Source: Patescibacteria group bacterium
GTDB taxonomy: Bacteria; Patescibacteriota; Patescibacteriia; UBA2196
Assembly (NCBI GenBank): GCA_036845805.1
Contig: DAIUDD010000002.1
Location: 55,868 to 119,867 of the forward strand
Direction of reading: 5' to 3'
DNA length: 64,000 nucleotides
Under the pieces are notes generated by a model. It saw only the letters and a list, made by a program, of their open reading frames with translations. It searched no databases and had not been told where the DNA came from. Numbering within the stretch: the first letter of the stretch is position 1; each line of letters starts with the position of its first letter. Made by a program: the position numbers and the translations under genes. Below, in pieces: positions 5,823-60,686 of this stretch.

Positions 5823-7700
5823 CTAAGATAGAACTGCTTTAATTCTTCTCACGCCGGCTGAACTGGCTTCTTCTTTAATAATTTTGAAAGCCCCGAGTTC
5901 GCCGGTATTTTTGACATGTGGCCCACCGCAAATTTCACAACTAAAATTTTCAGCTAAATTATTCGGGTCGCACACAGAATAAACTTTTACCTGATCGCCA
6001 TATTTATCAGCAAAGACGCCAATCGCACCTTTGGCTTTAGCTTCCGTGACAGTCATTTCTTCGCAAGTTACATCCATCTTCTTATTTATCATTTCATTAA
6101 CCAAATCTTCCGCTTGCTTAATCTGCTCCGCTGTCATTTTTTCACTATGGGAAAAATCAAACCGCATTCTCTCTTCGGTAATATTGGAACCTTTTTGATA
6201 AATATGAGGACCCAATACTTTGCGCAAAGCAGCATTCAATAAATGGGTGGCAGTATGATATTGGGTCACTTTTTCGGAATGGTCAGCCAGGCCGCCTTTA
6301 AATTTTCCGGCCGCGGCTGTGCGTGAAAGTTCCTGATGTTTTTGCATTTCAATATTAAAACCACTTTCATCAACTGCCAATCCTTTTTCTTTGGCCAACT
6401 CTTTAGTCAATTCCAAAGGAAAACCAAAACTTTGGAATAAATTAAATGCTACAATTCCCTTAATTTCTTTATCTCTGGTTGCTTCAGCAACCATCCCGCC
6501 ATGGCGGGATGAAAGCGGAGCTTCCAATTTCTTAGTTTCTTTTTCAAATTCCTTTATTCCCTCTTGCAACGTCTGAGTAAATTTTTCTTCCTCCACCTGT
6601 AAATTATCAAGCACAAATTTACGGCTACGATCTAATTCCGGATAAACATCATTCATTAAATTAATTACCACTGTCGCAATTTGGTGAGTAAAATTTTCTT
6701 TAATGCCAAGCAGGCGGCCATGGCGAATGGCACGACGAATTAATTTCCGCACCACATAGCCTTGGTCCACATTAGCGGGCGCAATACCATGATCATCGCC
6801 CATAATAAAAGTAACCGCCCGCAAATGATCAGCAATAATGCGCATCGATCTGATAGTCCCCTCCTTTTCAAGGAGGGGCCCATGCCCCGCAGGGGCAGAG
6901 GGGGTGGTTATGTATTTTTGCCCAGATAACTCTTCAATCTTTTGAATAATTGGTAAAAATAAATCTGTTTGATAATCATCATCCAAACCACTTATCACGG
7001 CTAAATTTCTTTCCAAGCCAGTGCCATTATCAATGTTTTTTTGATTGGCTGGTTTATATTTATTCTCCCCTATTTTTTCGTATTGCATTAAAACATCATT
7101 GCCAATTTCTACCCAGCGCTTGTCCGAGGGATCAAAAACTTTTGGCGCTGGTCCTTTTTTATCAACCCAATAAAACATCTCGGTGCACGGGCCGCAGGGG
7201 CCAGAATTGCCAGTTGGTTCCCACCAATTGTCTTTTTTGGGCAAAGATTTAATTCTATCTTGATCAATTCCGAGTTTTTTCCAAATTTCAATTGATTCAT
7301 CATCGCGTGGCGCATTTTCATCACCAGCAAAAACAGAGACGGCCAAAAATTTTTTATCCAAGCCAAGCTCCTTTGTAACAAACGCAAAAGTCATTTTCAA
7401 GGCTTCCTCTTTCCAATAATCTCCTATTGACCAATGACCGAGCATTTCAAAAAATGTGTGGTGAAAGCCGTCGCCGACTTCATCAATGTCACCAGTGCGA
7501 ACGCATTTTTGCGAATTAACTAGTCGCGCGCCAGCTGGATGTTTTTCGCCAAGCAAAAATGGCACGAGCGGGCTCATGCCGGCAGTGGTAAATAAAATTG
7601 AGGGATCATTTTCTGGAATTAAAGAAGCGCTCGGGATTTCTGCATGCCCATTTTTTTTAAAAAATTCAATGTATTTTTGCCGCAATTCTTTAGAAGTCAT
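5823..7700 (-). CDS. alaS: Alanyl-tRNA synthetase, short form (625 aa): catalytic, tRNA-recognition and editing domains present; no C-Ala domain
   Basis: N-terminal class II motifs, internal HTATHLLNAALRKVLGPHIYQKGSNITEERMRFDFSH editing-domain signature, and a metal-binding C..C.GGPHV site near the C-terminus. Confidence 0.9.
   Translation of the reverse strand: MTSKELRQKYIEFFKKNGHAEIPSASLIPENDPSILFTTAGMSPLVPFLLGEKHPAGARLVNSQKCVRTGDIDEVGDGFHHTFFEMLGHWSIGDYWKEEALKMTFAFVTKELGLDKKFLAVSVFAGDENAPRDDESIEIWKKLGIDQDRIKSLPKKDNWWEPTGNSGPCGPCTEMFYWVDKKGPAPKVFDPSDKRWVEIGNDVLMQYEKIGENKYKPANQKNIDNGTGLERNLAVISGLDDDYQTDLFLPIIQKIEELSGQKYITTPSAPAGHGPLLEKEGTIRSMRIIADHLRAVTFIMGDDHGIAPANVDQGYVVRKLIRRAIRHGRLLGIKENFTHQIATVVINLMNDVYPELDRSRKFVLDNLQVEEEKFTQTLQEGIKEFEKETKKLEAPLSSRHGGMVAEATRDKEIKGIVAFNLFQSFGFPLELTKELAKEKGLAVDESGFNIEMQKHQELSRTAAAGKFKGGLADHSEKVTQYHTATHLLNAALRKVLGPHIYQKGSNITEERMRFDFSHSEKMTAEQIKQAEDLVNEMINKKMDVTCEEMTVTEAKAKGAIGVFADKYGDQVKVYSVCDPNNLAENFSCEICGGPHVKNTGELGAFKIIKEEASSAGVRRIKAVLS
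6856..6912. repeat. Family-2 palindromic element (cccctccttttcaaggagggg ... cagagggggtggttat) inserted in-frame inside alaS
   Basis: Same hairpin plus ggggtggtta module as the intergenic copies at 7712-7801, 26577-26650 and 26781-26945; encodes the extra segment TPSAPAGHGPLLEKEGT just before the conserved RIIADHLRA block. Confidence 0.7.
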
Positions 7701-7711: not shown

Positions 7712-7801
7712 AGTCCCCGCCTTATGAAGGCGGGGCCTCATGTTCCACCACCCTTGTGGTGAGTGGAACAGAGGGGGCGGTTAATAAGATCGCCGATAGG
7801 C
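7712..7801. repeat. Family-2 palindromic element, intergenic copy upstream of alaS
   Basis: gtccccgccttatgaaggcggggc shows compensatory changes relative to the cccctcc/ggagggg copies, so the stem is conserved; shares the 3-prime module ggttaataagatcgccgataggc with the 26577 copy. Confidence 0.7.
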
Positions 7802-8196: not shown

Positions 8197-9003
8197 TTAA
8201 CCTCTTCGGCAATCCGAGGAGATCACCAGAAAAGATGTTTCTTCTGTGCCGTAGGCTGGAAAAAACACTGCTTTAGTTTCCCCTCTCCTTACTTGAGAAA
8301 CTGCAGTATTAATATCATATGGGGATTTCCACCCTCTGCGTTTCCGAACAAATCTATTAGGCCGAATAAACTTACCCGGACATTCGTGCCCAGATAATTC
8401 ATCCGTGCCTTCTTCGGAAACAACAACCACAACGTCGCAAGAACAGATTTTTTTCCCGTCGCTACTGATTGCAACGGCTCGGTCAAAATCGCTCTCGGCG
8501 TTTTTTGCGATTGACTTAACTGCTAAGGTGAGTCTCTCTAACAAAAAGCTCCGAGCCTCAATGTCATCCCAGCGAAATAGCAATGCCAAGACAACATCGG
8601 CATTGGTAATTGACCGAATTCTTCTGCCAATTACCTCGCATTGTGCGACGCCGGCTTTTCCTCGGTATTCCACCAAGTAGGCATCAATCGCACCAAAAAC
8701 ATTTGGCAACCCGTAGATATTGGCTAAATCTCCACGGATTAGCCAATCAGCCAACCCACTAGTGAGAGCCGCAAAAGATTTCTTTAGGAATCTGGTGACA
8801 ACCCCGTCCCACTGAAAGTGAGTGGTGTTAAACGGAAATACAATTTCCGCCGCATTCAACCATGCCTGTTTCCAGGACATCACGGCCGAATACCCAGCTC
8901 CAGTGGCTGGTCGTTTTTGAAGGTAATTTAAGGGATCTTTAATCCCAAAAACTTCCTCTAGCCGGTTGGCCACAAAGGCCAATTTTTTTTCTTCTAGATT
9001 CAT
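8197..9003 (-). CDS. Hypothetical protein (268 aa) in a high-GC island; no family recognised
   Basis: Long ORF with an AGGAGG RBS; local GC about 45-47% against about 33% genome-wide; contains a Cys/His cluster (CSCD...HECPG); structured leader (hairpins 9028-9042 and 9065-9101). Confidence 0.5.
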   Translation of the reverse strand: MNLEEKKLAFVANRLEEVFGIKDPLNYLQKRPATGAGYSAVMSWKQAWLNAAEIVFPFNTTHFQWDGVVTRFLKKSFAALTSGLADWLIRGDLANIYGLPNVFGAIDAYLVEYRGKAGVAQCEVIGRRIRSITNADVVLALLFRWDDIEARSFLLERLTLAVKSIAKNAESDFDRAVAISSDGKKICSCDVVVVVSEEGTDELSGHECPGKFIRPNRFVRKRRGWKSPYDINTAVSQVRRGETKAVFFPAYGTEETSFLVISSDCRRG

Positions 9004-9218
9004 AACTTCCTCCTAAGAAGTTTGTTCGGGAGCACTACTCCCGTTTGCCTGCTTGACCATCAAGCAGTATTTTGAATACTAAAATAATAATCAAAATACT
9101 GCCTGTGGTAATTTTTTAAAGGACTATTTTCTTCTCTTCTAAAACTTTCCAAAAAATGAAAAGTTTTAGTAAAGAGCCAAAGCAGCGGTGCATTGCTGCT
9201 TTGGCAAAAGCGTGTGGA

Positions 9219-9614
9219 TTACTCCGCATTCTGGAACACGCGTTCCAGAATGGCGAAATAATTTGACTTTTGGTCTCCACTCCCGATATATTGGGAGCAG
9301 ACAGCCACCCATTCGCCACCACCTCGGTTGGTGCACACGAGGTGGGCGTTAGAGGTGGCTGAGCCAAAAGTCAAGCTCAGCAGGTCTTGGGGCCGATAGC
9401 CCTTCCACCCGCCGAACTGGCCATCCAGAAATAAAACATTTTCTGAACGGTCTTCATAGGGGTCTACCACGACATCACGGTAGCCCCACGAGTTGACCGC
9501 GATCCACACGCGATCGATGGCAAAACATTTCTCCTCCTCACCTTGGGTGAGAAGGCGGCTCAACCTGCAGAGTTGCGACTCTGTAAGGAGCCTTGTTTCT
9601 TTTAAAAAACTCAT
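9219..9614 (-). CDS. Hypothetical protein (131 aa), same high-GC island
   Basis: ORF with a GGAG RBS 7 nt upstream of the ATG; high GC; co-directional with the 8197-9003 ORF. Confidence 0.5.
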   Translation of the reverse strand: MSFLKETRLLTESQLCRLSRLLTQGEEEKCFAIDRVWIAVNSWGYRDVVVDPYEDRSENVLFLDGQFGGWKGYRPQDLLSLTFGSATSNAHLVCTNRGGGEWVAVCSQYIGSGDQKSNYFAILERVFQNAE

Positions 9615-10146
9615 AATTTCTCCAATTTTTTAACCGACGCCCAATTGCGCCAGTAAACCAGTATGCTCTGGATTGGAGAATCTTGCCACCGCTTCTATTT
9701 CTTTTTTTAAGAAACAAAAGTGGTGGCAAAAAAAATTTTAAAGAACTTTTTTTCTATTGACTGTGGTGAAGACGATTTTCTTAGTAAGAGGCAGATCAAT
9801 AAACAATGTTTGTTAATATCCGCGTTACTAATGTCTCTCTTCTCCACCACGGTCCTTAGAAACAAAAAAGTCTTCTACTGTTCAAGAGAGAAGACCATAA
9901 TTAATAAATCTAATAAAAATTGACTTGTTGTAGGGCTCGCAGTGCCTACCAGACTGTCTCTCTTGTTTTAATCCTAAATTGTAAAGATTAAAATTTATCT
10001 CACATTTTTTATTTTGTATATCTTATTATAGCACACTTGTATAATTTTGTCAATAGATAGATTGTGTATAAATAAAAAAATTACCTAAAATTAGCTAAAT
10101 TAAAGACGTGATAAATCACGTCTCTACAACCATAATTATTACTTTT

Positions 10147-10184: not shown

Positions 10185-12740
10185 TCATCTCAGATCTCTT
10201 TCATGTGGTGGCGCTTCCACTCCCTCGCCCAACTTAGACCGCTCAAAAATTTCTTTTTCCACTTCGGCTTTAGGCCGACCATATTTAAGGCGGGAAAATT
10301 CACGCGCCGCATGAGCAATTTCGGGATTACCTTTAACCGGCGAGAAAGCTGCCATATTAAATGGCCGGGCGGCTTCGTTATTAATCATTAAACGCACATA
10401 AGCATTAAACTTTTCAATATTCATTAAATCATATTCATTAAAAACCGGCGCAAATTGTTTGGACATTACTTCGGTGTCTTCCACCCCAATCCGATAACAA
10501 ACCATGGTGCCGACATTGCCAAAAACAGCGTCTCTCACTTTAGTGTCATTATTTTTAACAAGCTGGCTGATAAATTGATGCGCCATAATCATATTCAGGC
10601 GATATTTTCTAGCTTCAGCTAAAATGGTGGCAATGGAATCAGTGACATAATTTTGAAACTCATCAATATATAAATAAAAATCATTTCTTTGGTTTTCTGG
10701 TACATCCGCGCGCGATAAGGCGGCCATCTGTAATTTGGAAACAAAAGTTAAGCCTAATAAATCACTATTAACTTCGCCAACTTTGCCTTTGGATAAATTA
10801 ACCAAAAGAATTTTCTTCTGATCCATGGCAGAGCGAATATCAAAACCAGAATGCGGCTGGCCAATAATATTTCGCATCATTTCATTTTCCACAAAACGAC
10901 CAGTTTTGGAAATCACATAGGAAAGCATGTCAGCGGCACTCGAACCGCGCTGGGATTGAGCATATTCTTTTTCCCAAAATGATTTAACTAATAAATCATG
11001 ACATTTAGAGAGTTTGTAATTACGAAATTCTTCATCGGTAAAAATCCGCGCGATTTCCACTAAAGTGCCAGGGTCTTTTTGATCTGACATTAAAAGCAAC
11101 ATGGCATTACGCATATAATGCTCAAACATCGGGCCAATCATGGACGGATCAGTGACTAATTTATAGAAAATGGCAATCATTTCCTGAACAGCAAAATCTT
11201 GCTCTTGGGGAGTTTGGGCATCCAACATATTAAGGCCAACCGGACGATCAATGTCTGAAGGGTCAAAATAAATCACATCTGCTAATCTTTCTTTGGGAAT
11301 GGCAGGCAAAATATCATCAATGCCGTTGCCGTGCGGATCAATATAGCAAACACCTTCGCCGTTTTGAATATCTTGTACCGCCATGTTAACCATTAAAGTG
11401 GACTTGCCTGTACCGGTCATCCCAATAATATACATGTGTCGGCGGCGATCGTCGCGTTGTAATTTAACAATAGTTTCTTTGCCGCGATAAATATTTTTGC
11501 CTAAGATAATTCCCTCCTCTGGCATATTGACTGGCGCTGGCGCTTTTCTGGCCCCCAACCAATAAATATTAGGGGTGGGGCAAGAGGGTAAGGGAAAATG
11601 AAACAAAGAAGCCAACTCTTCGGTGTTTAAAATAAAGGCAGACTCGGCTCTAAATTGCCGATGAATTGAATCGGAAATGGTGCGCTCTGATTTTTTTACT
11701 AAAGCCTTAAAACCATTGCCATACTCATAGATATTATATTGGCCAAAAGAATTTAAAATATTTTTTAGATTAATTTCGGAACCGCCCTCAAAAGCGCTGG
11801 CCACCACTAAACGCAAATTAACTTGGAGCGCGCCTTTGGAAGATTTTTCTTCCATTGATTTAATTAATTCCTGATCAAATGGCGTTAATTCAGCGTTTTT
11901 ATTAAGCTGATTTTTAGGTTTTTCACCAGCAGTCATCATAGAATGCAAAGAACCAATACTGCCAAAAGTGCCCTCGGCTAATTTATCATACCAAGACTTC
12001 TGGTTTAAACTTTTTAGAACTGTTTCTATTTTTCTGCCAGACATTATTTCTTTAACTGCTTTTCGGCCACGCTTATGCCATTCTTTATGGATGGGTCTAA
12101 TAATTAATTGGATCAACGCTCCTTCTTTTGAACTAAACTTAGACAAACTGTTGGTCGTGGCGTTTAAAGGATCAACTTCCATTTTGCGGTAAGTTTTAAT
12201 TGGCAATACGTCGGGCCGGGTTAGAAGTAAATTAGCAGCCGAAGCATTACCGGTCGGCGTGAATAAATTATAATCCTCGCTAATTTCGGTTTGGGCATGA
12301 GGATATTGAGCTTGAATTTGTTGTTCAACAAATTGGGCTAGATAGGCGGGTACTACCACATAGAAATAAACCAGTTCGCGCTGAGCTACAATTTCTAAAG
12401 AAATCTGATCGTGGCGACCATAAAGCCAAGTATGCCAACCCTTAAGTGGTTTAATGGCAGCAAAGGCCGCCCATAAATTTTCCGCCCAAGAAATTTGTTC
12501 CTGAATACGATTAGGGCCGGTGTTTTGATTTTGAAGCTCGTCTTTACCGGCCGCTGCTTCTTTGGGCACAGTAATTAATAAAATTATTGGGCGAAACTCG
12601 GCGGGTAATTTATAGTGACTTCTCATCCAAGCGCGCCAGAGGTATAAAACAACAATGATTAAAATAATTACGCCAATCAAAAATAACCCAACCACCAAAG
12701 CGGGGTTATTAAAAATTAATGAGGAAAAAGAAGAAGTCAT
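10185..12740 (-). CDS. Membrane-anchored P-loop ATPase of the VirD4/TraD/TrwB (type IV coupling protein)-like superfamily
   Basis: N-terminal TM helix; Walker A IIGMTGTGKST; Walker B-like LYIDEFQNY; large cytoplasmic domain; start set at internal Met (MTSSFSS, 12740) because the upstream part of the ORF runs through a repeat. Confidence 0.65.
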   Translation of the reverse strand: MTSSFSSLIFNNPALVVGLFLIGVIILIIVVLYLWRAWMRSHYKLPAEFRPIILLITVPKEAAAGKDELQNQNTGPNRIQEQISWAENLWAAFAAIKPLKGWHTWLYGRHDQISLEIVAQRELVYFYVVVPAYLAQFVEQQIQAQYPHAQTEISEDYNLFTPTGNASAANLLLTRPDVLPIKTYRKMEVDPLNATTNSLSKFSSKEGALIQLIIRPIHKEWHKRGRKAVKEIMSGRKIETVLKSLNQKSWYDKLAEGTFGSIGSLHSMMTAGEKPKNQLNKNAELTPFDQELIKSMEEKSSKGALQVNLRLVVASAFEGGSEINLKNILNSFGQYNIYEYGNGFKALVKKSERTISDSIHRQFRAESAFILNTEELASLFHFPLPSCPTPNIYWLGARKAPAPVNMPEEGIILGKNIYRGKETIVKLQRDDRRRHMYIIGMTGTGKSTLMVNMAVQDIQNGEGVCYIDPHGNGIDDILPAIPKERLADVIYFDPSDIDRPVGLNMLDAQTPQEQDFAVQEMIAIFYKLVTDPSMIGPMFEHYMRNAMLLLMSDQKDPGTLVEIARIFTDEEFRNYKLSKCHDLLVKSFWEKEYAQSQRGSSAADMLSYVISKTGRFVENEMMRNIIGQPHSGFDIRSAMDQKKILLVNLSKGKVGEVNSDLLGLTFVSKLQMAALSRADVPENQRNDFYLYIDEFQNYVTDSIATILAEARKYRLNMIMAHQFISQLVKNNDTKVRDAVFGNVGTMVCYRIGVEDTEVMSKQFAPVFNEYDLMNIEKFNAYVRLMINNEAARPFNMAAFSPVKGNPEIAHAAREFSRLKYGRPKAEVEKEIFERSKLGEGVEAPPHERDLR

Positions 12741-12745
12741 AAACG

Positions 12746-12777
12746 AGAAACTAGAAATTAAGAAACTAAGAAATTGA
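12746..12777. repeat. Family-6 short repeat, A-rich orientation (gagaaactagaaattaagaaactaagaaattgag)
   Basis: Inverted relative to the 10147 copy; its 17-nt core gaaactaagaaattgag is identical to 26536-26552. Confidence 0.6.
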
Positions 12778-12877
12778 GGGTTTATTGTTTTCGCCCTTAA
12801 TTTCTCCCGCCCGCCTTGCAAGCCAGAGTGCTGTGGGCAGGTTATTTCTGTGTTTCTTTATTTCGTTTTTTTATTAT

Positions 12878-15302: not shown

Positions 15303-15365
15303 TGGTTCAGGATTACACCCTGAACCTTTTTTGTTATAAAAAAACCCCGTATAAACGGGGTTAAG
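15303..15365. terminator. Pair of convergent terminators (ggttcaggattacaccctgaacc + T-run for corA; aaccccgtataaacggggtt for the minus-strand ORF)
   Basis: Two perfect hairpins, each followed by a U-run on the appropriate strand. Confidence 0.65.
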
Positions 15366-15383
15366 CTGAATTATCTCTCACTT

Positions 15384-15629
15384 TTATTTTTTAGAAGCCA
15401 AATCTGTTAAACCGGCGACATTGGTAATTTTAATTAAGCCGGTATTTTTATCCCTTTGTAAAACATCGTCTTGATTTTCTAATTCTTCCAACAAAATCAA
15501 GACGTCTTCTTCTTCGTCAATGTTGAATTCCCAAAGCACATCATTTAGTGGTATGGCCTGGTCTTCTACCTCATCGAGTTGCAATAATAAAAAAATGCAC
15601 AACTTTTTCTTTAATGCTTTACGGGTCAT
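15384..15629 (-). CDS. Hypothetical small acidic protein (81 aa)
   Basis: ORF with its own terminator; no family recognised. Confidence 0.4.
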   Translation of the reverse strand: MTRKALKKKLCIFLLLQLDEVEDQAIPLNDVLWEFNIDEEEDVLILLEELENQDDVLQRDKNTGLIKITNVAGLTDLASKK

Positions 15630-15694
15630 GTGGCCCTCCTAATTTATCATCTTTGCCAAAATAACTTTTTTAAGATAAAATAAACTTACCATTT

Positions 15695-17152
15695 ATGAAT
15701 AATTTTTTCAAGATTTACAATACACTTGGCCGAGAAAAGCAAGAATTCAAGCCCCTGAAAAAGGGGCGGGTTTTGATGTATCATTGTGGACCGACGGTCT
15801 ATTGGACCCAACACATTGGCAATATGCGCGGCATGGTGATGGCGGATTTAATTGTCAGAAGTTTGGAATATTTGGGCTATCGGGTAAAATTGGCGCGCAA
15901 TTATACTGATGTCGGGCATTTAACTTCGGATAGTGATGAAGGTGAAGACAAAATAGAAAAAGGAGCGAAAAGGGAAAATTTAACGCCAAAACAAATCGCG
16001 GATAAATATATAAAAATTTTTGAAGCAGATATTAAAGAACTAAACACCCGACCGGCAGATTATAAACCACGAGCCACTGAAACAATTCCCGAAATTATTA
16101 AAACTGTGCAAACGCTTTTGGACAAAGGCTATGCCTATGAAACAGATTTGGCAGTTTATTTTGATGTTTCTAAAACAAAAAATTATACCAAGCTTTCTGG
16201 CCAAAAAATGGCAGAAAATATAAAAGAAGCCGGCAAGGCCGGAGTCAGCGACCCAGATAAAAAAAATCCAGCGGATTTTGCGCTTTGGTTTTTTCGCGCG
16301 GGCAAACATAAAAATGCACTGCAATATTGGAGCTCGCCATTTAAATCAAATTTGGTAAAAAATGGTGAAGGTTTTCCGGGTTGGCATATTGAGTGTTCAG
16401 TCATGGCCAAAAAATTCTTGGGTGAAACCATTGATATTCATATGGGCGGAGTGGAACATATTCCAGTGCATCACACTAATGAAATTGCCCAAAGTGAAGC
16501 GGCTAATGGGGTGGAGTTTGTCCGCTATTGGCTCCACAATGAACATTTGGTGGTGGATAATAAAAAGATGGCTAAATCAGAGGGCACGAGCTATGCTTTA
16601 AGCGAAATCAAAGAAAATGGTTTTGCCTCAATGGCTTTGCGTTATTTCTTTTTACAAGCGCATTATCGGAGCAAACAGAATTTTACTTGGGAGGCGTTGA
16701 AAGCAAGCCAGACGGCTTATAATAAATTAATTTCTTTTTTAACCGACGAGAATTCAAAAGAATCAAGAATTACAGATTACAAATTACCTGCCTCGCCGAC
16801 AGGTAGGCAGATTACGGATTACAAAAATAAATTTATACAATATCTAGCTGATGATTTTAATATTCCTGGCGCGCTTTCATTAATTTGGGAGATTATTAAA
16901 GACATTGCACTTCCCTACTCTGAAAAAAAGAAACTGATTTTGAATTTTGATAAAGTCATGGGTTTGAGACTGGATAAAATTAAAAAAGAAAAAATAGTTA
17001 CCCCAATTGAAGTGCAAAAATTAATAGCTGAAAGAGAAAAAGCTAGAAAAAATAAAAATTGGCAACAAGCTGATGAATTAAGAATTAAGATTTATGATTT
17101 AGGATTTATAGTGGAAGATGTTGGCGAAAAAAGTGTGATAAAAAAGAAATAA
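15695..17152 (+). CDS. cysS: Cysteinyl-tRNA synthetase
   Basis: HCGPTVY...HIGN (HIGH-type motif), zinc-binding Cys, KMAKSEG (KMSKS motif). Confidence 0.9.
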   Translation: MNNFFKIYNTLGREKQEFKPLKKGRVLMYHCGPTVYWTQHIGNMRGMVMADLIVRSLEYLGYRVKLARNYTDVGHLTSDSDEGEDKIEKGAKRENLTPKQIADKYIKIFEADIKELNTRPADYKPRATETIPEIIKTVQTLLDKGYAYETDLAVYFDVSKTKNYTKLSGQKMAENIKEAGKAGVSDPDKKNPADFALWFFRAGKHKNALQYWSSPFKSNLVKNGEGFPGWHIECSVMAKKFLGETIDIHMGGVEHIPVHHTNEIAQSEAANGVEFVRYWLHNEHLVVDNKKMAKSEGTSYALSEIKENGFASMALRYFFLQAHYRSKQNFTWEALKASQTAYNKLISFLTDENSKESRITDYKLPASPTGRQITDYKNKFIQYLADDFNIPGALSLIWEIIKDIALPYSEKKKLILNFDKVMGLRLDKIKKEKIVTPIEVQKLIAEREKARKNKNWQQADELRIKIYDLGFIVEDVGEKSVIKKK

Positions 17153-17258: not shown

Positions 17259-17453
17259 TCACTGCCAAGCTTTCCCCTTTTGTTCATAATATTGATCCGT
17301 GCTCACAGAGCTCGAGCCAGTGGGAATAGCTGGTGGCTCAGTGCCTTCAGCATCGCGACGATCTTCCTCTCCCTCTGGTGTATGAACCGCGCCGTCAGGC
17401 CAGCCAGTATGGGCTAAAATTTGTCCGAATTTTTCATCTTTGTCATTTGCCAT
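17259..17453 (-). CDS. Small hypothetical protein (64 aa) encoded by a high-GC (about 50%) segment
   Basis: Strong RBS (aaggagg, 4 nt spacer) before the ATG; Pro/Glu/Gly-rich; GC content far above its surroundings. Confidence 0.4.
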   Translation of the reverse strand: MANDKDEKFGQILAHTGWPDGAVHTPEGEEDRRDAEGTEPPAIPTGSSSVSTDQYYEQKGKAWQ

Positions 17454-17483
17454 TGTGCCTCCTTGTTTGAAATAATCGGTCGT

Positions 17484-18005
17484 TTATACTTCCGAGTTAG
17501 GAAACATAGAAACGATATTAGCATCTTGTTTTTTTTCTTGACCCATTTTTTTTAAATGTGCATCGATATCCAGATCTAATTCATCGGGCCCGTCAACCAA
17601 GAAATTAATTCTTTCATAGTAACAGGCACAGTGTCCGGTATGGTCATACGCTTGATGACACTCCGAGCAATAGCGCACCACGGCTGCTGCCATCTTTTTG
17701 ATTTCCTCTATGGTTAAAATAGATGCTAACGGTTTTATTCTTTTAATGCCAGTGCTATTTAAATGCTGAGTAATTTTTTTTGCTAAATCATTAATTTTCC
17801 TAAAGCCCCAGAGAGGGTGCGGGACGGTAACTAATAATTGGTGTCGCCGCAAAGCTCTTTCTAACAAATTTGATAAAATTAACCTTTTTTCTAGATCATC
17901 AACGTCTGGCAATTCACCATCATAATTATGATGCTCATTTTTGTAAGCCAGACAGATGGGAGAAATTATGGTTATAACTTCTTCGACTGTTATTTCTTTT
18001 TTCAT
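17484..18005 (-). CDS. Hypothetical protein with a C-terminal Cys/His metal-binding cluster (YCSECHQAYDHTGHCAC)
   Basis: ggagg RBS just upstream of the Met at 18005; no family recognised. Confidence 0.5.
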   Translation of the reverse strand: MKKEITVEEVITIISPICLAYKNEHHNYDGELPDVDDLEKRLILSNLLERALRRHQLLVTVPHPLWGFRKINDLAKKITQHLNSTGIKRIKPLASILTIEEIKKMAAAVVRYCSECHQAYDHTGHCACYYERINFLVDGPDELDLDIDAHLKKMGQEKKQDANIVSMFPNSEV

Positions 18006-20876: not shown

Positions 20877-21376
20877 TTCCAAGATACAATTTCCCCGCCC
20901 GCATCGCCTTGCAAAGCATGGCGGACAGGCAATTTCCAAATAAAATTCAAATTTCAAATTATAAATTATTTTTCTCTTTTTTAATAATAATTGATGATAA
21001 TATATTTTTTAATTCTATAGCTTCTTGTTTTAGATTCTGCATTCGAGGAGAAAATTCAGGATTAGCTTCTTCTATAATTTCTAACCAATGTAAGGTTTCT
21101 TTGCATTCTTTGCGAGCTATTTTCATGCGATGAATAAAATCTTTGTTACCTAAGGCGTCATTAGCTTCCCGATAATTAGCTCCTATAGAGCCAGCGGATC
21201 TAATTATTTGACTAATTAAAGGTCTGTTAATTTCATCTTTTGATAATTCCCTACACAACCTAACAGTTCTTTTAGCAAAATCAGTAGTTCTTTGTTCTAA
21301 ATTGTATCCGGAATAATCCATAAATTTTATTTTGGATATTGTTATTTGAAATTTATTTGGAAATTGTATCTTGGAA
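20877..21376. mobile_element. Cassette bounded by perfect 18-bp inverted repeats (ttccaagatacaatttcc / ggaaattgtatcttggaa) carrying a four-helix-bundle protein gene
   Basis: 18/18 inverted repeats at 20877-20894 and 21359-21376 verified by eye; right end followed by tandem ggaaattg units. Confidence 0.5.
20959..21321 (-). CDS. Four-helix-bundle protein (TIGR02436-type, the family found in 23S rRNA intervening sequences)
   Basis: SIGANYREANDA...KDFIHRMKIARKECKETLHWLEII is the signature of this family. Confidence 0.75.
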   Translation of the reverse strand: MDYSGYNLEQRTTDFAKRTVRLCRELSKDEINRPLISQIIRSAGSIGANYREANDALGNKDFIHRMKIARKECKETLHWLEIIEEANPEFSPRMQNLKQEAIELKNILSSIIIKKEKNNL

Positions 21377-21388
21377 ATTGGAAATTGT

Positions 21389-21676
21389 CTACTCACCCTT
21401 AAATCCTAACTCTTTTTCCGGTGCCATCGCTTCTTCTATTTTACCAAAATTATTTTCATATTTTTCTAAATTTTCTTTAAGCGCCGCAATCATCCTTTTC
21501 ATGTGCGCTGGGTTGGTAATAATTTTAGCGGCCACACGGCCAGATGGTGGTAAAACATTCATGTAGGTTAAAACAAATTCCTCTTTGCTATGAGAAACTT
21601 GCATAGCATTGGCATATTCGCCACCAGGAAAATTATCTTGGATTTTAATTTCTTGAGGTTGGTTTGGATTAGGCAT
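21389..21676 (-). CDS. DUF3467-family protein
   Basis: GEYANAMQVSHSKEEFVLTYMNV...AKIITNPAHMKRMIAALKENLEKYE closely matches the DUF3467 consensus as I remember it. Confidence 0.55.
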   Translation of the reverse strand: MPNPNQPQEIKIQDNFPGGEYANAMQVSHSKEEFVLTYMNVLPPSGRVAAKIITNPAHMKRMIAALKENLEKYENNFGKIEEAMAPEKELGFKGE

Positions 21677-26529: not shown

Positions 26530-26532
26530 ATG

Positions 26533-26567
26533 TTAGAAACTAAGAAATTGAGAAATTAGAAACTAAG
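26533..26567. repeat. Family-6 short repeat, A-rich orientation (gttagaaactaagaaattgagaaattagaaactaag)
   Basis: 17-nt core identical to 12761-12777; inverted partner at 27653-27690. Confidence 0.6.
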
Positions 26568-26576
26568 GGTTCCAAG

Positions 26577-26650
26577 CTCCCCTCCTTTTCAAGGAGGGGC
26601 GATAGAGGTGATAGCCTCATCGGGGTGGTTAATAAATCGCCGATAGGCGG
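26577..26650. repeat. Family-2 palindromic element
   Basis: cccctccttttcaaggagggg + ggggtggttaataaatcgccgataggcgg. Confidence 0.7.
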
Positions 26651-26742
26651 ATAGTTTCCCTTTATTTCTCTTTTTCTTTATTTCTTAATTACTTTTTCAT
26701 TTATCCCCAACTTTTTTAATCTATTTCCATTATACAAAACAA

Positions 26743-26769
26743 TTAGCACTCGTGTCAAGCGAGTGCTAA
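26743..26769. promoter_or_regulatory. CIRCE operator (HrcA binding site) ttagcactc-N9-gagtgctaa
   Basis: Perfect match to the CIRCE consensus TTAGCACTC-N9-GAGTGCTAA, upstream of hrcA-grpE. Confidence 0.85.
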
Positions 26770-26780
26770 ATGGATTAGCA

Positions 26781-26945
26781 GTCCCCTCCTTTTGAAGGAG
26801 GGGCCTTAAGCCCGAAGGGCTAAGGTGGTGGTTATGGTATTTAGAATTAATTTTATCTTAATGTTATAACCACCCCCGTCTCTGCTTCGCAGAGTCGCCC
26901 GTTAATGTTTGCCGTTGTGGCAAACATTAACTTTAAAAGGAGGGG
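26781..26945. repeat. Composite family-2 palindromic elements (two hairpin modules plus the perfect hairpin gttaatgtttgcc-gttgt-ggcaaacattaac)
   Basis: cccctccttttgaaggagggg ... ggtggtggttat and, inverted, ataaccacccccgtctctg. Confidence 0.65.
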
Positions 26946-27062
26946 ATAAAAAGCTAATTTTAGCCAAAATTTCTATTAGCTATTGACATAATAATAATAA
27001 GATATAATGGTGACATAAATTTTTTAACTTTTTCACAAATCACAAATCAGGGAGGCAAAAAA

Positions 27063-27419
27063 ATGAAAGCCTACTGGATAGAGGGGTTTGGAATTTGTGT
27101 GCCATATGATTCTCAAAAACATCTCCAGTATATTTGCAAATTTATGGTGATGTCCACGCCCGACGGCAATATTATAATTGCCGGTCCTCAAAATACACAT
27201 CGCGCTCTGATGAAGGACGCGGAAAATTTGTTGGAGATGTTAAATTCTCGATCACCCAGATATCCTCTTTATGCTGGCGAGTGCGCCCGCGGTGGAAAAA
27301 TTAATTTATTTGATATGCTTTTTTCATCTGATTGGGAAAGCGTTGAATTTGGAGCGCACACCCCACAAAACATGCGCCTTGAAATTGTAAAAATTTTGGG
27401 ATTAATTACAAAAGCGTAA
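27063..27419 (+). CDS. Hypothetical protein (118 aa) in a self-contained high-GC cassette with its own promoter, RBS and terminator
   Basis: RBS gggagg; upstream ttgacataataataataag motif; downstream hairpin terminator 27456-27490; GC about 45%. Confidence 0.5.
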   Translation: MKAYWIEGFGICVPYDSQKHLQYICKFMVMSTPDGNIIIAGPQNTHRALMKDAENLLEMLNSRSPRYPLYAGECARGGKINLFDMLFSSDWESVEFGAHTPQNMRLEIVKILGLITKA

Positions 27420-27455
27420 CGGTCCCCAGAAATCGGGTGCGAAGATTCTTGTTAG

Positions 27456-27490
27456 CACATTTCCTTATGGAATGTGCTTTTTATTTTTTC
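27456..27490 (+). terminator. Terminator (gcacatttccttatggaatgtgc + T-run)
   Basis: Perfect 9-bp stem plus T-run. Confidence 0.65.
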
Positions 27491-27652
27491 AATTGTCATC
27501 CTGAACTTGATTTAGGATCTCCCAGAATAAGTTTGTCTCAGAGTAAGGGGGTGCTAAAATAAATTCAGTATAAAAATATAAATAAAAATGGACAGGTCGC
27601 GACCTGTCCCTACATCACACTTCATTATTCTCTGTTTATTACTTTTTTGCCA

Positions 27653-28098: not shown

Positions 28099-28519
28099 GG
28101 TTGTCATTCCGAGGAGTAAAGCGACGAGGAATCCCGTGTGATTACCAGCACCCCGGTTTTCCAAAATCGCTCCCAAATTAAACTTAAATCATTAAAATTT
28201 GGATTTATTAGTTTAATTAAATTTATCTTCTTTTCCCTTCTCCATCCTTTGATTTCTTTTTCTCGTTTTATAGCTTCAAGCGGTTTATTAAAACATTCAA
28301 AATAAACTAACTTATTAATATTATACCTTTTTGTAAAACCTTCTTTCTTTTTTCTTTCATGCTGTTTATCTCTATTAGGCAGATATCCAGAAATACCAGT
28401 ATAAAAAACAGTGTTTCTTTGATTAGACATGATGTAAGTACAATAATTTTTTGGTCTTTTGATTCTCATATTTGTTATGATAACACGGGATCCTTCGCTA
28501 ATCGCTCAGGATGACAACC
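28099..28519. mobile_element. Family-1 palindromic element split into two halves by a GIY-YIG nuclease gene
   Basis: Left half ggttgtcattccgaggagtaaagcgacgaggaatcccgtgtgat (28099-28142) and right half atgataacacgggatccttcgctaatcgctcaggatgacaacc (28476-28519) form a 43-bp imperfect inverted repeat; the 366-bp GIY-YIG ORF lies exactly between them. Confidence 0.5.
28104..28469 (-). CDS. GIY-YIG nuclease family protein (YhbQ/COG2827-like)
   Basis: YIMSNQRNTVFYTGISGYLPNRDKQHE...LVYFECFNKPLEAIKREKEIKGWRREKKINLI matches the GIY-YIG motifs; the last 15 codons and the stop are encoded by the repeat half. Confidence 0.8.
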   Translation of the reverse strand: MRIKRPKNYCTYIMSNQRNTVFYTGISGYLPNRDKQHERKKKEGFTKRYNINKLVYFECFNKPLEAIKREKEIKGWRREKKINLIKLINPNFNDLSLIWERFWKTGVLVITRDSSSLYSSE

Positions 28520-43750: not shown

Positions 43751-44719
43751 TTATTTTAAAAAAAGATTAACCAATTTTTCCGCTGAATCATAATTTTTTA
43801 CCCACTTAATTCTTTTATCTCTTTTAAACCAAGTCAACTGGCGTTTGGCAAATTGATGAATGGCAATTTTTAATAATTTAATCATTTCTTCTTTGGGATA
43901 CTGACCGCGCAAATAGCGAGAAATATAGCGATATTCCAAACCAAAATCATCCAACCGCTGCCAACTGACTCCTTTTTGGTGTAACAGTTCTATTTCTTTA
44001 ATCATCCCCTCTCTCAGACGCTCATCAACCCGCTGGTCTATTCTTTGATTAATAATTTCACGGGGAAATTTAATGCCAATAATAAGCGGATTAAAAAGCG
44101 GGTTTTTTTTCTGCCGCAAAGCAGAAAACTTGTGTCCAGATAAACAAACCTCAAGTGCGCGGTCTAGACGTCGTGGGTTTTTAGTATCTACAAATTCTAA
44201 AGCGGCTGGATCTAATTTTTTTAATAATTTTATTTTTTCCAAAGTTTCCATTTTTTCGATTTTTTTTCTCAATTTTATGTTGGGCTTAACAGCGGGAATA
44301 TTATAATTATCAATCAAAGCGGAAAGATAAAGGCCGGTACCGCCAACCACGATGGGCAATTTACCACGCGCGATGACATTATTAATGGCTTTTAGTGCTA
44401 ATTTTTTATATTTAGCGACATTAAATTTTTGATTCGGATTAACCACATCAATTAGATGATAAGGGACAAAAGAATTGTCATTCCGGACTTGATCCGGAAT
44501 CCACTTATTTTTATTTCTGGATCCCAGCTTTCGCTGGGATGACAAACTATATTCGCTCAAATCTTTGCCAGTGCCAAGATCCATGCCGCGATAAACTTGT
44601 CTCGAGTCAACAGAAATAATTTCGCCATTAAATTTGGCAGCTAATTTGACAGCTAATTTTGTTTTACCAGTAGCTGTGGGACCGAGAATAACAATGATTT
44701 TTGGTTTTAATATTGACAT
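43751..44719 (-). CDS. miaA: tRNA dimethylallyltransferase with an in-frame palindromic-element insertion
   Basis: P-loop GPTATGKT, ISVDSRQVYRGMDLGTGK; the element at 44475-44546 adds about 27 aa (LSEYSLSSQRKLGSRNKNKWIPDQVRNDNSF) between the GTGK and HLID motifs. Confidence 0.85.
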   Translation of the reverse strand: MSILKPKIIVILGPTATGKTKLAVKLAAKFNGEIISVDSRQVYRGMDLGTGKDLSEYSLSSQRKLGSRNKNKWIPDQVRNDNSFVPYHLIDVVNPNQKFNVAKYKKLALKAINNVIARGKLPIVVGGTGLYLSALIDNYNIPAVKPNIKLRKKIEKMETLEKIKLLKKLDPAALEFVDTKNPRRLDRALEVCLSGHKFSALRQKKNPLFNPLIIGIKFPREIINQRIDQRVDERLREGMIKEIELLHQKGVSWQRLDDFGLEYRYISRYLRGQYPKEEMIKLLKIAIHQFAKRQLTWFKRDKRIKWVKNYDSAEKLVNLFLK

Positions 44720-44808
44720 AATATAATTAATATGATAAATTATATTAACTAAACAAAGTTAATAAAAAAATTAATAAAAAGATAAAATTCACATCGGGAG
44801 GATGGGCA

Positions 44809-45435
44809 ATGGAATTATCAGAAAAAATATTTTTGTATTTTTTGATTATTCTCCAGACAATGTTCATGCCGGAAAGCTCGGTGCCGGTTTGGACAGCCAT
44901 GGAATTACTGTGGTGGCAGGTTTTTTTTATTGTTTCCTGTTTTGCCAATGTCCCGGTGGCTATTATTTTCTGGCCACATCGGTTTGCTAGACTTATTATA
45001 GCACAAAAAAAAATGGCGCAATTTTACCGCCAATGGCAGAATTGGAAAAAAGAAGAAATAAAAGCCACCATCAATAGTATAAAAAAAATTACAGACAAAA
45101 AAACTACTAGTCTGCCGTTTTTAAAAATAATGGTTGGCTGGATTGTTGTTCTGGTCACCATTATTGCCACTTGGTGTAAACTGATTAAAGAAAAGGCAAA
45201 AAAAAGCTTACACCACGCCAGCAATCGAGTAATCGATTGGCTACGGGGACTTGGCTACACCGGCGTTATTATTGGTGCCGGCACACCTCTTTTGCCTGGT
45301 GCCAGACCAGGCGGGTTAGCAGCGGCTTTAATTCTAGGAACAAAGCAAGCAAAGCTGCTGTTCATTTTGTGCGAGGAGCTAAGGATATTGTGCGAGGCGT
45401 ATCTTTGTTCCTTGGGCGTGCAATTATTTCAATAA
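44809..45435 (+). CDS. Hypothetical membrane protein (208 aa)
   Basis: Several TM helices; Gly-rich GVIIGAGTPLLPGARPGGLAAALILG segment. Confidence 0.45.
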   Translation: MELSEKIFLYFLIILQTMFMPESSVPVWTAMELLWWQVFFIVSCFANVPVAIIFWPHRFARLIIAQKKMAQFYRQWQNWKKEEIKATINSIKKITDKKTTSLPFLKIMVGWIVVLVTIIATWCKLIKEKAKKSLHHASNRVIDWLRGLGYTGVIIGAGTPLLPGARPGGLAAALILGTKQAKLLFILCEELRILCEAYLCSLGVQLFQ

Positions 45436-45611
45436 TTTAGCATGCCCGGCATATTTTTTTACAACCTCGAGGCGAGATATTTGGCCAGCCAAAGTCCCGC
45501 CTTTTTTATTTTTAATTTTTTGTTTCTTTTTAAGAATTTCTCTCTTTTCAGATTTGGTTTTTTTCATACGCCAGAACCCCATACATTGGGGCTTTTTATT
45601 TTATTTATTAA

Positions 45612-58482: not shown

Positions 58483-60057
58483 CTAATTATTTGGCAAGGG
58501 TTGGTATTGGAAGATAAAAATTAAAACAATAAAGCCAATGCCCAAAGGATGATTTAAATAGGGGGTAAAGATATTAACGGCGAGTAAGGCCACTAAGGCG
58601 ATGCCAAATGAATAATGAATTATGAATAATGAATTATGGTTTTTTTGATTTAAGTTTGAAAAATTAGAATTTGTTTCGAATTTTAATAACTTTTTTATAA
58701 TTAAAAAAAATAAATATAAATAAATGCCTAATCCAACTAGCCCAAATTTAAGGATCATATCCAAATAGCCCCACTCAGAAGCATAAGTAGTCACTTCGCC
58801 GCTTTGGCCAGCAGTTTCATTAATTAAGCGCGGGTCAGTGCTAAAATAAGTAAAAGTGGCGCCAAAGCCAGAACCAATTAGAGGGTGTTTTTTTATACCT
58901 TGCCATAAGGGTGTTAATTGATTCAGGCGGGCAGCCGAGGCAGCTTCACCTTGAGTTAAACGTTGGCCTAAAATACTAGCCCAGTCCCCCACTGGTTTTG
59001 GCGGCAAAAAATAAATGGCACTAACCAAAACCAGACTGGCGAATAAAAATAAAATTATTTTTCCAATCTGTTTTAAAATATTAAAAAATTTTTCTTTAGT
59101 GATAATAAAATAAACCAAATAACTAAGCAGGCCGGCGATTAAACCCACCCAGAAACTGCGGGAAAAAGAAATAATTAGCACGGCTAAACAAAAAATTGGC
59201 AATAAAAAATCAATTAAGATTGAATAAATTTTGTGTTCAGTTTTTTTAAATTTTAAACCAACAAACAAAATAAAAAATAAAATTAAAACATAAATTTGCG
59301 CCGGCATAAATATGCGCCAGACATTGCCAGCCACATGAGTAATTTCAGCGACATTGGTATCGCGCACCCATTGATATATTTCCGGCAGAAAAAAAGAAAC
59401 TTGATGAGTAAAAATATAAAATAAAAATATAGTTTTTAAAAAAATAACACTGCCGGCAGCGCATAAAATTGAGATAATGTTTATTATGAATTTGTGTTTA
59501 TTCGTGTTCTTATTGGTGTAGATTAGTGTCATTGGCAGCGCAACTAACCAATACAACCAATTATTAAAATCTAAAAACACATTACCAAAATCATTGCCGC
59601 GAATTATTCCCCAAACAAAGGCCCAGACAACAATGATTGTCATTCCGAGTTCCGCAATTAATGCGGAACGAGGAATCCTGCGGAAAACAGAATTAATTTT
59701 GTATAATGTTTTGCTTTGTTTTTCACGGGATCCTTCGTCGTTAACACTCCTCAGGATGACATTTACTAAAAACACTGCCATCACCACTATAAAAATTCCC
59801 ATCCTTATAGATAAAACCGTGTTACCTAAATCTACCGAAAACAGATATCCTTTAGAACCAACAAATAATTCTGCTAGTAAAATATAAAGGCCATATTTTA
59901 ATTTGTATAAAGATAAAAAAAGCGTGGCTAAAATTATAGCCACAAAACAAACCGTATTTAGCCAATGATTGGCCCAGCTTAAATATGACAAAATTTCTGC
60001 TAAAATTAGCAAAAAAAATGTAATTTTAAAATATTTTTTACTAATAAAACTTGACAT
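58483..60057 (-). CDS. O-antigen ligase/polymerase-like (Wzy/WaaL family) polytopic membrane protein carrying an in-frame palindromic element
   Basis: More than 10 TM helices and a large periplasmic loop; the element at 59636-59762 encodes VILRSVNDEGSREKQSKTLYKINSVFRRIPRSALIAELGMT. Confidence 0.6.
   Translation of the reverse strand: MSSFISKKYFKITFFLLILAEILSYLSWANHWLNTVCFVAIILATLFLSLYKLKYGLYILLAELFVGSKGYLFSVDLGNTVLSIRMGIFIVVMAVFLVNVILRSVNDEGSREKQSKTLYKINSVFRRIPRSALIAELGMTIIVVWAFVWGIIRGNDFGNVFLDFNNWLYWLVALPMTLIYTNKNTNKHKFIINIISILCAAGSVIFLKTIFLFYIFTHQVSFFLPEIYQWVRDTNVAEITHVAGNVWRIFMPAQIYVLILFFILFVGLKFKKTEHKIYSILIDFLLPIFCLAVLIISFSRSFWVGLIAGLLSYLVYFIITKEKFFNILKQIGKIILFLFASLVLVSAIYFLPPKPVGDWASILGQRLTQGEAASAARLNQLTPLWQGIKKHPLIGSGFGATFTYFSTDPRLINETAGQSGEVTTYASEWGYLDMILKFGLVGLGIYLYLFFLIIKKLLKFETNSNFSNLNQKNHNSLFIIHYSFGIALVALLAVNIFTPYLNHPLGIGFIVLIFIFQYQPLPNN
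59636..59762. mobile_element. Family-1 MITE-like element (TIRs attgtcattccgag / ctcaggatgacat) inserted in-frame in the Wzy-like gene
   Basis: 127 bp with about 13-bp TIRs; preserves the reading frame (42 codons). Confidence 0.65.
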
Positions 60058-60129
60058 AATAATAATAATAAGCTAAGATGGGTGCAAATACTTATGACAG
60101 TGGTCGTAAACATACCAAAAAGGAGGGTG

Positions 60130-60557: not shown

Positions 60558-60565
60558 GTTACGGG

Positions 60566-60600: not shown

Positions 60601-60686
60601 TATCTTCTACCAACCTTTAGTTAAGGGTCGGTTCCGATTTATCAGGGCTTTTATTTTTATTTAATTTTCGGTAACACTACTCTTTT

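Follow-up and report, generated by a model that had tools for sequence, protein, structure and literature searches.

Single-gene units with a TAA-repeat promoter in a Patescibacteria genome: candidate accessory expression units with a conserved promoter and replaceable cargo

Two small units among housekeeping genes

The subject of this analysis is a pair of small single-gene units, A and B, in a 64,000-nucleotide (nt) stretch of contig DAIUDD010000002.1 from a Patescibacteria group bacterium, together with the promoter that they appear to share. The window, by which the whole of that stretch is meant, is 36.3% GC and has the gene content typical of a reduced Patescibacteria-like genome; no tRNA genes were found in it and no Rfam family at gathering score. 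Unit A (26983-27490) has the genes hrcA/grpE/HSP20, RNase H, GIY-YIG and recJ as neighbours, and unit B (60051-60604) genes for a wzy-like protein, GT2 glycosyltransferases, YkuD and L1. Each has what reads from the sequence, with folding and motif scans as a check, as its own promoter and its own terminator around a single open reading frame (ORF). The predicted parts are listed below, with the Shine-Dalgarno (SD) sites and, where given, the energy of their duplex with the anti-SD sequence.

Unit A
26983-26988, plus strand: -35 box, TTGACA, by sequence reading
26989-27002, plus strand: spacer of promoter A, TAATAATAATAAGA, i.e. (TAA)4 (26989-27000) followed by GA, 14 nt
27003-27008, plus strand: -10 box, TATAAT
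27009-27062, plus strand: leader, 54 nt, with GGTGACATAAATT near the likely start site
27050-27055, plus strand: SD site, GGGAGG, 7 nt 5' of the ATG, -11.1 kcal/mol
27063-27419, plus strand: ORF A, 118 amino acids, public name hypothetical protein PKZ16_01050
27454-27490, plus strand: intrinsic terminator, a 10-pair hairpin with one bulge (27454-27478) and a T-run
27495-27523, plus strand: palindrome GTCATCC...GGATC 3' of the terminator, resembling repetitive extragenic palindromic (REP) elements, one of about 25 copies of a generic element in the window

Unit B
60051-60056, plus strand: -35 box, TTGACA
60057-60073, plus strand: spacer of promoter B, (TAA)5 (60057-60071) followed by GC, 17 nt
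60074-60079, plus strand: -10 box, TAAGAT, overlapping the ATG at 60078 of the public annotation
60080-60131, plus strand: leader
60121-60126, plus strand: SD site, AGGAGG, 5 nt 5' of the ATG, -12.1 kcal/mol, the strongest in the window
60132-60557, plus strand: ORF B, 141 amino acids (public model PKZ16_01195, 60078-60557, 159 amino acids)
60563-60604, plus strand: intrinsic terminator, 12-pair stem, AAAC loop and T-run, -18.4 kcal/mol, z = -3.99
60689-60775, no strand assigned: REP-like palindromes (GTCATyC...GGATC) clustered between unit B and the glycosyltransferase gene

The first-pass annotation of this DNA had proposed two self-contained cassettes, each with a strong ribosome-binding site of its own and a perfect hairpin terminator. 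The order promoter, leader, SD site, ORF and terminator is indeed found at both, both look like autonomous modules and oppose their flanking housekeeping genes, and the strong ribosome-binding sites are borne out, nearly all other genes here being without one. What had to be revised is the start of ORF B, which lies at 60132 and not at 60130, and the terminator of A, which is not perfect but has a one-base bulge. The public start of ORF B at 60078 falls inside the -10 box, so that the public model is probably 18 codons too long; if promoter B is real, the start is 60132. The divergent wzy-like gene (58483-60057, minus strand) opens at 60055-60057 with the CAT of promoter B, whereas the CAT of promoter A opens no divergent gene. 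Spacer A is shorter than spacer B by 3 nt, which is one repeat unit, and since its 14 nt lie outside the range of 16-18 nt the promoter scanner made no call there.

The promoter family in the window

The 18-mer TTGACATAATAATAATAA has exactly two copies in the window, where 100 dinucleotide-preserving shuffles give an expectation of 0.00. It had been described as an identical motif of 19 nt; the identity extends over 18, after which the second copy has one extra TAA. Tracts of (TAA)4 are confined to three sites in the window, and TTGACA alone is found there at chance frequency (36 observed, 33.9 expected). Promoters A and B, also referred to as w1 and w2, are identical at 74 of 115 nt (64%). 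A third unit with a promoter of the same family was found between them.

44713-45470, plus strand: unit U4, with promoter TTGACATAATATAATTAATATGATAAATT, SD site GGGAGG, ORF and terminator

The U4 promoter (w3) reads TTGACA-TAATATAATTAATATGA-TAAATT, with a 17-nt spacer and a TGn extended -10 box, and its cargo is a 208-residue membrane ORF at 44809-45435 that is SD-led and has no Pfam domain. Aligned with the promoter at locus L017 of the relative described below, it scores 36, beyond every shuffle (null maximum 33). The anatomy of the family is TTGACA, a TAA-repeat spacer and a TAnnAT -10 box, with three copies in the window and at least two in the nearest relative compared. In several cases the -35 box overlaps the ATG of a divergent gene: wzy at w2 and L017, recJ at locus L119 of the relative and miaA at U4, where TTGACAT supplies the start codon of miaA with its CAT. 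Because the same CAT is the divergent start codon in w2, L017 and L119, wzy and the relative's recJ both begin MSS; the miaA opposite U4 begins MSI, not MSS, and the window's own recJ begins MPQ.

The motif might have been a generic promoter of ordinary housekeeping genes, a possibility that the first-pass annotation had itself raised. In this window it is absent before them: the hrcA, L25 and infA/rps promoters have TTGACA or TTGACT with ordinary spacers and none is TAA-spaced. Two other ideas about these promoters were given up. A specific leader motif, AAATTCACA, had one match with 1.9 expected. Leaderless transcription of wzy and recJ, with (TTA)n as the -10 box, lacked a convincing -35 box, and hrcA and L25 are clearly leadered.

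Conserved promoters and unrelated cargo in other genomes

The window was compared with a single relative, the metagenome-assembled genome (MAG) DAOOOW01, at two 8-kb loci, L017 and L119; its core genes have 72-76% DNA identity to those of the window. L017 is the orthologous slot of unit B, between wzy and the glycosyltransferase gene, and its flanks match 60773-61347 and 63318-63960 at 74-76%. Its promoter reads TTGACA(TAA)5-TATGC-TAAATT and, taken together with the 5' end of wzy, is identical to w2 at 53 of 59 nt. From the promoter to the glycosyltransferase gene the segment is non-homologous and holds an unrelated AT-rich ORF of 74 amino acids with GGAG, a terminator and REP-like elements. 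Since the slot is occupied by an unrelated ORF, ORF B has no vertical orthologue in this relative, in keeping with the first-pass proposal.

At L119 the promoter reads TTGACA(TAA)6-GC-TATAAT and adjoins recJ. It is followed by GGAGGG, an unrelated Cys-rich ORF of 89 amino acids, a terminator, a REP element and a GIY-YIG gene. Promoter A and L119 share 30 of 35 nt across the end of the repeat, the -10 box and the start of the leader, promoter B shares 37 of 46 nt with L119, and the REP element that follows the L119 cassette is homologous to that after unit A. As unit A also lies beside GIY-YIG and recJ genes, it and L119 are probably positional counterparts after a rearrangement. Like the genome around them, the cargo ORFs of the relative are rich in AT, and neither they nor the neighbours of the ORF A homologues described below have similarity to any SD-led ORF of the window.

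In other Patescibacteria the 18-mer is found mostly 5' of small SD-led ORFs, eight of the nine tested being without a Pfam domain. The Moraniibacteriota MAG RS_12_31 (JAGLWU01; genome about 31% GC) has at least nine copies of TTGACA(TAA)4-8, at L016, L047, L061, L070, L072, L097, L098 and L115. ATTGTrC often stands ahead of them, and the ORFs behind are mostly small, unrelated and SD-led, in a genome where a strong SD site was found on only 2 of 45 long ORFs; in this last comparison the choice of start codon was biased towards SD sites downstream of the motif. The Moraniibacteriota set has the same type of promoter in a much larger family. A further observation concerns a module of about 45 nt, CTTATTTTACAAyGrTTTTTCTGGTAGTACTTGACA(TAA)4TAyGmTAyAmT, which is near-identical in a Saccharibacteria MAG and a Parcubacteria MAG (L050 and L067, also L088). 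With different genes behind it in the two genomes, it is a candidate for a promoter shared between phyla.

Shine-Dalgarno sites and further SD-led units

SD pairing was scored in 59 genes as the duplex energy between the 20 nt 5' of the start codon and the anti-SD sequence ACCUCCUUA. The energies are bimodal. Eight of the 59 genes have energies of -10 kcal/mol or lower, namely A, B, the third ORF of the first-pass annotation (C), U1, U4, E, U2a and, doubtfully, a GGGGG run before tmk. The remaining 51 are at -6.6 or above, and their median, +0.2, indicates weaker pairing than the median of random 20-mers (-1.6); ORF D (9219-9614) is intermediate at -6.4 kcal/mol. A further 15 genes, just outside the window, all lack an SD site, and the relative DAOOOW01 has the same split. 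The seven clear SD-led ORFs are all without a Pfam domain and form six units, each ended by a terminator-like hairpin, five of which oppose both neighbours. With third-codon-position GC (GC3) of 0.33-0.60, the class mixes native-looking and foreign-looking genes. The least expected element of the system is that SD use appears confined to these units.

15340-15700, minus strand: unit U1, with an 81-residue ORF at 15384-15629, AGGAGG and a terminator; not of the TAA family
17259-18005, minus strand: two-gene SD-led unit, U2a (173 amino acids, 17484-18005) followed by an ORF of 64 amino acids (17259-17453), with a shared terminator

ORF C, at 17259-17453, lies 30 nt 3' of U2a. It had been named as a third small high-GC gene; it is the second gene of a minus-strand, two-gene operon with no TAA promoter and does not belong to the promoter class. 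The longest-ORF start of U2a at 18089 is probably wrong, and the SD-led ATG at 18005 is to be preferred. The U1 and U2a units flank the cysteinyl-tRNA synthetase gene, both against their neighbours.

ORF D (GC3 0.61) and ORF E (8197-9003, with a strong SD site) are GC-rich, have no Pfam domain and lie on the minus strand within 8197-10060. Upstream of them is a promoter of consensus form (TTGACA-N17-TATAAT at 10053), followed by some 430 nt of leader within which a terminator-like hairpin lies near 9880-9915, and the region adjoins a gene for a TraG/VirD4-like coupling protein (10185-12821). It may be an integrated mobile element or contain a small RNA gene.

The encoded proteins

Composition was judged against 54 window genes (GC 0.364 ± 0.032, GC3 0.312 ± 0.041). 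The first-pass annotation had put the GC of ORFs A and B at about 45% and 48% and called both foreign. That holds for ORF B, an outlier at 0.493 GC (z 4.0) and 0.599 GC3 (z 7.0) whose codon score is under that of every core gene, and fails for ORF A (0.406, z 1.3; GC3 0.387, z 1.8), which is compositionally native, as are U1 and U2a. In a six-frame codon log-likelihood test the proposed frame alone was positive for A, B and the third ORF.

Proteins A and B are unrelated to each other, as had been stated. The further statement that neither resembles anything stands for B only. Pfam, PHROGs, PADLOC and NCBIfam returned nothing for ORFs A, B, C, D and E (for the PADLOC defence models, no match at E <= 1), searches of PDB by sequence and profile returned nothing for A and B, and a word-indexed search of 5.8 billion proteins with A or B recovered the queries themselves only. 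No match came from tblastn against phages or from IMG/VR scans with B, A, P0009 and the motif, so that the suggested link to defence, anti-defence or phages found no support in PADLOC, PHROGs or these scans. On these searches ORF B is a species-restricted orphan.

A HMMER scan of the whole library (phmmer) with ORF A found four full-length proteins of 102-113 amino acids with 37-39% identity (E = 9e-6 to 3e-4). The query and these four were combined in a profile, which extended the set to 21 clusters of 102-119 amino acids, all unnamed and metagenomic (alignment A3). H46, P68, G72, W91 and S93 are invariant in 21 of 21 clusters, and Y15, H20, K26 and F27 nearly so. The motifs KFLYW, PDGAG and TPE..R..I.EALGL are found in most members and are altered in A, the most divergent of all, which has KFMVM for KFLYW, YAGE for DGAG and a 9-residue insertion. 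By this alignment ORF A is a divergent member of an unnamed metagenomic family of about 105 amino acids. Its homologues have housekeeping neighbours (FtsZ, RNase Y, HU, L32, RNase HII), none of them conserved, and each is richer in GC than its own locus in host genomes of 40-59% GC; the mild GC excess of A is thus a property of the family and no sign of recent transfer. Matches to giant LVIVD, SH3 and Tudor repeat proteins were rejected as repeat-amplified noise because three unrelated Pfam families were involved. Single-sequence AlphaFold models were unusable, with a predicted local distance difference test (pLDDT) score of 47 for A and 48 for B, as is expected when no alignment is supplied.

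Length of the TAA tract

The spacers of A, B, L017 and L119 are 14, 17, 20 and 20 nt long and so differ by whole repeat units. The canonical 17 nt are found in the family at B and at the 44713 promoter only, and one of the two 20-nt spacers in the relative also reads as a TGn extended -10 box. The counts are constant, four TAA at A and five at B, in 11 independently assembled contigs (3 + 8) from several samples; as these are near-identical consensus assemblies of one strain, to which all contigs and 90% clusters belong, this is a weak test of repeat variation. An apparent 427 differences at L006 proved to be an indel offset. Differences in tract length between orthologous promoters were seen elsewhere. 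Two closely related Patescibacteria MAGs have (TAA)13 (L022) and (TAA)5 (L116) between flanks that are almost identical by eye, and two Clostridia MAGs (the pair L055/L074) have (TAA)7 and (TAA)5. At the former pair (L022 491 and L116 2762, minus strand) a structured-looking leader and a 109-residue ORF without a Pfam domain follow.

Other elements near the units and in the window

The REP-like family, GTCATyC-stem-loop-stem-GGATC, has about 25 sites in the window, mostly intergenic (e.g. 17165, 22148, 27495, 28103, 34117, 44477, 59639, 59760 and 60709), and similar elements are found in the relative. The copies at 59639 and 59760 sit within the wzy-like gene. Such elements lie beside all three ORFs of the first-pass annotation and were considered as cassette boundaries; this was rejected because the copies are scattered across the window and some are inside ORFs. 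A second palindrome family, CCCCTCCTTTTSAAGGAGGGG, has eight strand-matches with 0 expected. Copies are at 6858-6878, 26579-26599, 26783-26803 and also 7715-7735, and one is inside the alanyl-tRNA synthetase ORF, where it is read as ...PLLEKEG....

Next to unit A, the hrcA promoter on the minus strand (TTGACA at 26758, N18, TATAAT) has a -35 box that coincides in part with a perfect CIRCE element (TTAGCACTC-N9-GAGTGCTAA, 26744-26770). This promoter is 225 bp from promoter A and points in the opposite direction. A CIRCE at hrcA would be expected from HrcA autoregulation of the hrcA-grpE-HSP20 operon. Between the two promoters, at 26770-26935, are five consecutive hairpins, with the arms CCCCTCC/GGAGGGG, TTAAGCCC/GGGCTTAA, a 22-nt imperfect arm pair, GTCTCTGC/GCAGAG and GTTAATGTTTGCC/GGCAAACATTAAC. 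The stretch would be transcribed by neither flanking promoter as placed and has no Rfam match; over 26530-27070 the sole Rfam match was a weak one to SNORD11B at chance level (E = 0.7). Small GIY-YIG nuclease genes adjoin the cassette in both genomes (28104-28469 in the window, 6390-6734 in L119). They are 43% identical, against roughly 50-87% for the flanking recJ (both by tblastx), and recJ has been relocated between the two genomes, yet the GIY-YIG gene stays beside the cassette. These genes may be mobile and involved in rearrangement. Away from the units, a '23S rRNA-intervening-sequence protein' gene (PF05635) at 20959-21396 on the minus strand (GC 0.283, GC3 0.18) stands alone, away from any rRNA gene in the window.

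Interpretation

The reading favoured here, with a probability of roughly 0.55, is that A and B are autonomous single-gene accessory expression units in which the promoter is conserved, the cargo is replaceable and the spacer is set by repeats. Each would run from a sigma-70-type promoter through some 50 nt of leader and a canonical SD site to a small ORF closed by an intrinsic terminator, opposed to flanking housekeeping genes. The promoter, from what would be a small lineage-specific family, is the conserved part and the cargo is replaceable, in that the relative keeps the promoter in the same slot and has unrelated ORFs downstream. The distance between the -35 and -10 boxes is set by how many TAA units there are (14 nt in A, 17 nt in B and 20 nt in both copies of the relative). 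We infer that B is transcribed efficiently and A weakly or only with help, and gain or loss of repeat units would then be a route by which promoter strength changes over evolutionary time. SD pairing would serve the translation of these and a few similar units, and the core genome would be translated by SD-independent initiation.

Several points must be set against this. The promoters and terminators are consensus matches only, and promoter A, with its 14-nt spacer, may be non-functional as drawn. With a single relative compared, a conserved promoter with variable cargo amounts to two slots, and for one of these the positional orthology of w1 and L119 depends on a rearrangement that is itself deduced. 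In a scan of one genome per species the 18-mer had more than 116 matches in many phyla, sometimes inside genes, and the resemblance could therefore in part be convergence of consensus boxes around a slippage-prone AT-rich spacer. The ribosomes of this organism may be unable to use an SD site, and the start codons of the core genes were taken from the longest ORFs, although with the best of four starts only 5 of 55 long ORFs reach -8 or lower.

The convergence just mentioned leads to a soberer explanation, which is somewhat unlikely: that these are ordinary lineage-specific genes with generic sigma-70 promoters, that the motif arose by convergence with a spacer expanded by slippage, and that nothing here is modular. 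Small unknown genes are common in these genomes, TTGACA is at chance frequency and is used by housekeeping hrcA and L25, w1 and w2 are only 64% identical over their 115 nt, and the spread of the 18-mer across phyla in more than 116 genomes points the same way. Convergence alone accounts poorly for two exact copies of the 18-mer where 0.00 are expected, for a likeness of w1, L119 and L017 that runs past the -10 box into the leader, for the overlap of -35 box and ATG in three cases, with the MSS start at two unrelated genes against MPQ in the window's recJ, or for the common SD use that separates the units from the core genes. A different role for the repeats, an improbable one, is that the genes are phase-variable, TAA slippage within a population toggling them on (17 nt) or off (14 or 20 nt) and perhaps co-regulating the divergent gene, whose start codon has the tract directly upstream of it, as at hifA/hifB. 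The four spacers are indeed separated by complete TAA units, the length of orthologous promoters varies by 3 nt (w2 and L017), by eight units (L022 and L116) and by two (L055 and L074), and the hif system likewise has its repeat tract in a combined divergent promoter (van Ham 1993, as listed in PMC11868660). On the other hand, four to six trinucleotide units are short for high-rate slippage and the counts are identical in the 11 contigs of the strain, which record the majority allele only and are weak evidence both ways. Phase variation is at present unsupported.

So are a phage origin and a role in defence. That the units are recently acquired mobile or phage 'morons', or defence or anti-defence genes, is very improbable, though their promoter-gene-terminator anatomy fits, B and ORF D have a GC3 near 0.60 where that of the genome is 0.31, SD sites could come from SD-using donors, and a small GIY-YIG nuclease gene is found near unit A and the L119 cassette. 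Neither A, B nor the motif has a match in PHROG, PADLOC, the phage tblastn search or IMG/VR; housekeeping genes make up the flanks, and neither an integrase gene nor a phage gene is among the neighbours; A, U1 and U2a are native in composition; and what is conserved between genomes is the promoter, not the gene. It can hardly be credited that the loci contain no genuine ORFs and specify non-coding RNAs or no product. Region B is stop-poor on both strands, with an overlapping antisense ORF of 169 amino acids, and the AlphaFold scores of 47 and 48 are low, but low scores are expected where no alignment is given, the proposed frame is the sole positive of six, the SD sites are canonical and ideally spaced, A has 20 protein-level homologues with conserved residues, and there is no Rfam match.

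The favoured reading of A and B as autonomous accessory units can be extended, speculatively and with rather little confidence, to a two-tier system of expression in SD-poor Patescibacteria, in which SD-led accessory genes behind a propagating promoter, tuned or toggled by TAA repeats, stand against an SD-independent core. That such a system reaches beyond this genome is hinted at by the nine or more copies in Moraniibacteriota and by the eight of nine downstream ORFs without a Pfam domain. If the units are what they seem, the TAA-spacer promoter, the canonical SD site against an SD-less background and counter-orientation would be three marks of replaceable lineage-specific genes in this uncultivated, reduced-genome bacterium, and genes so marked would be the likeliest mediators of interaction with hosts or phages. 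It would become testable whether ribosomes of SD-poor Patescibacteria use SD pairing for a subset of mRNAs, and whether a trinucleotide repeat in a promoter spacer acts as an evolutionary or phase-variable rheostat. Practical gains are the correction of a likely mis-annotated start codon in ORF B and the placing of ORF A in a small family that could be characterised.

Comparison with known systems

Phage morons, associated with the names of Hendrix and of Juhala et al. (2000), are reportedly promoter-gene-terminator insertions between conserved phage genes. The units resemble them as extra single genes with their own promoter and terminator between conserved genes, differing between related genomes. 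Morons are often compositionally distinct, as B is (GC3 z = 7.0) and A is not (z = 1.8), and dispensable. The units differ from them in lying in a cellular chromosome with housekeeping flanks and with no phage genes or PHROG match, and in that the promoter is conserved while the gene changes. Integron cassettes, with which the units are not to be equated, are likewise small, unrelated, exchangeable single genes in a fixed slot with a conserved promoter upstream, whereas here each gene has its own promoter and terminator and the single-gene slots are scattered. No attC-type site was evident, although no formal attC model was run, and no integrase was found among the neighbours; the downstream hairpins belong to the genome-wide GTCATyC...GGATC REP-like family.

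Putative mobile promoters have been defined by at least 50 nt aligned at 80% identity or more (Matus-Garcia et al. 2012, PMC3488235). Similar promoters before non-homologous genes, with non-homologous upstream neighbours (hrcA, wzy, miaA, recJ), are found here too, but the shared core is about 20-45 nt, short of that threshold, and only the orthologous pair w2/L017 reaches 53 of 59 nt. The closest precedent for the repeats is the H. influenzae hifA/hifB promoter with TA repeats (van Ham 1993, as cited in PMC11868660). With such switches the units share a tandem repeat between the -35 and -10 boxes, a promoter combined with that of a divergent gene and differences by whole units. They differ in their tracts of four to six units, in that no variation in length was seen within the population among 11 consensus contigs, and in a cargo of cytoplasmic-looking proteins and not known surface antigens. 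The GAA repeats of M. gallisepticum vlhA are a further simple-sequence-repeat switch.

As for translation, in about half of Parcubacteria 16S genes an anti-SD motif is undetectable, mostly in lineages lacking uL1 (PMC9297842); this organism has uL1. Bacteroidia ribosomes ignore SD sites, and there a lone strongly SD-led gene is specially regulated, which in Flavobacterium is the autoregulated rpsU (PMC7797042, PMC13000453). The likeness is that the core genes of the present genome are SD-less and a few genes have a strong SD site; the difference is that the SD-led genes here are not rpsU but unrelated accessory ORFs without a Pfam domain.

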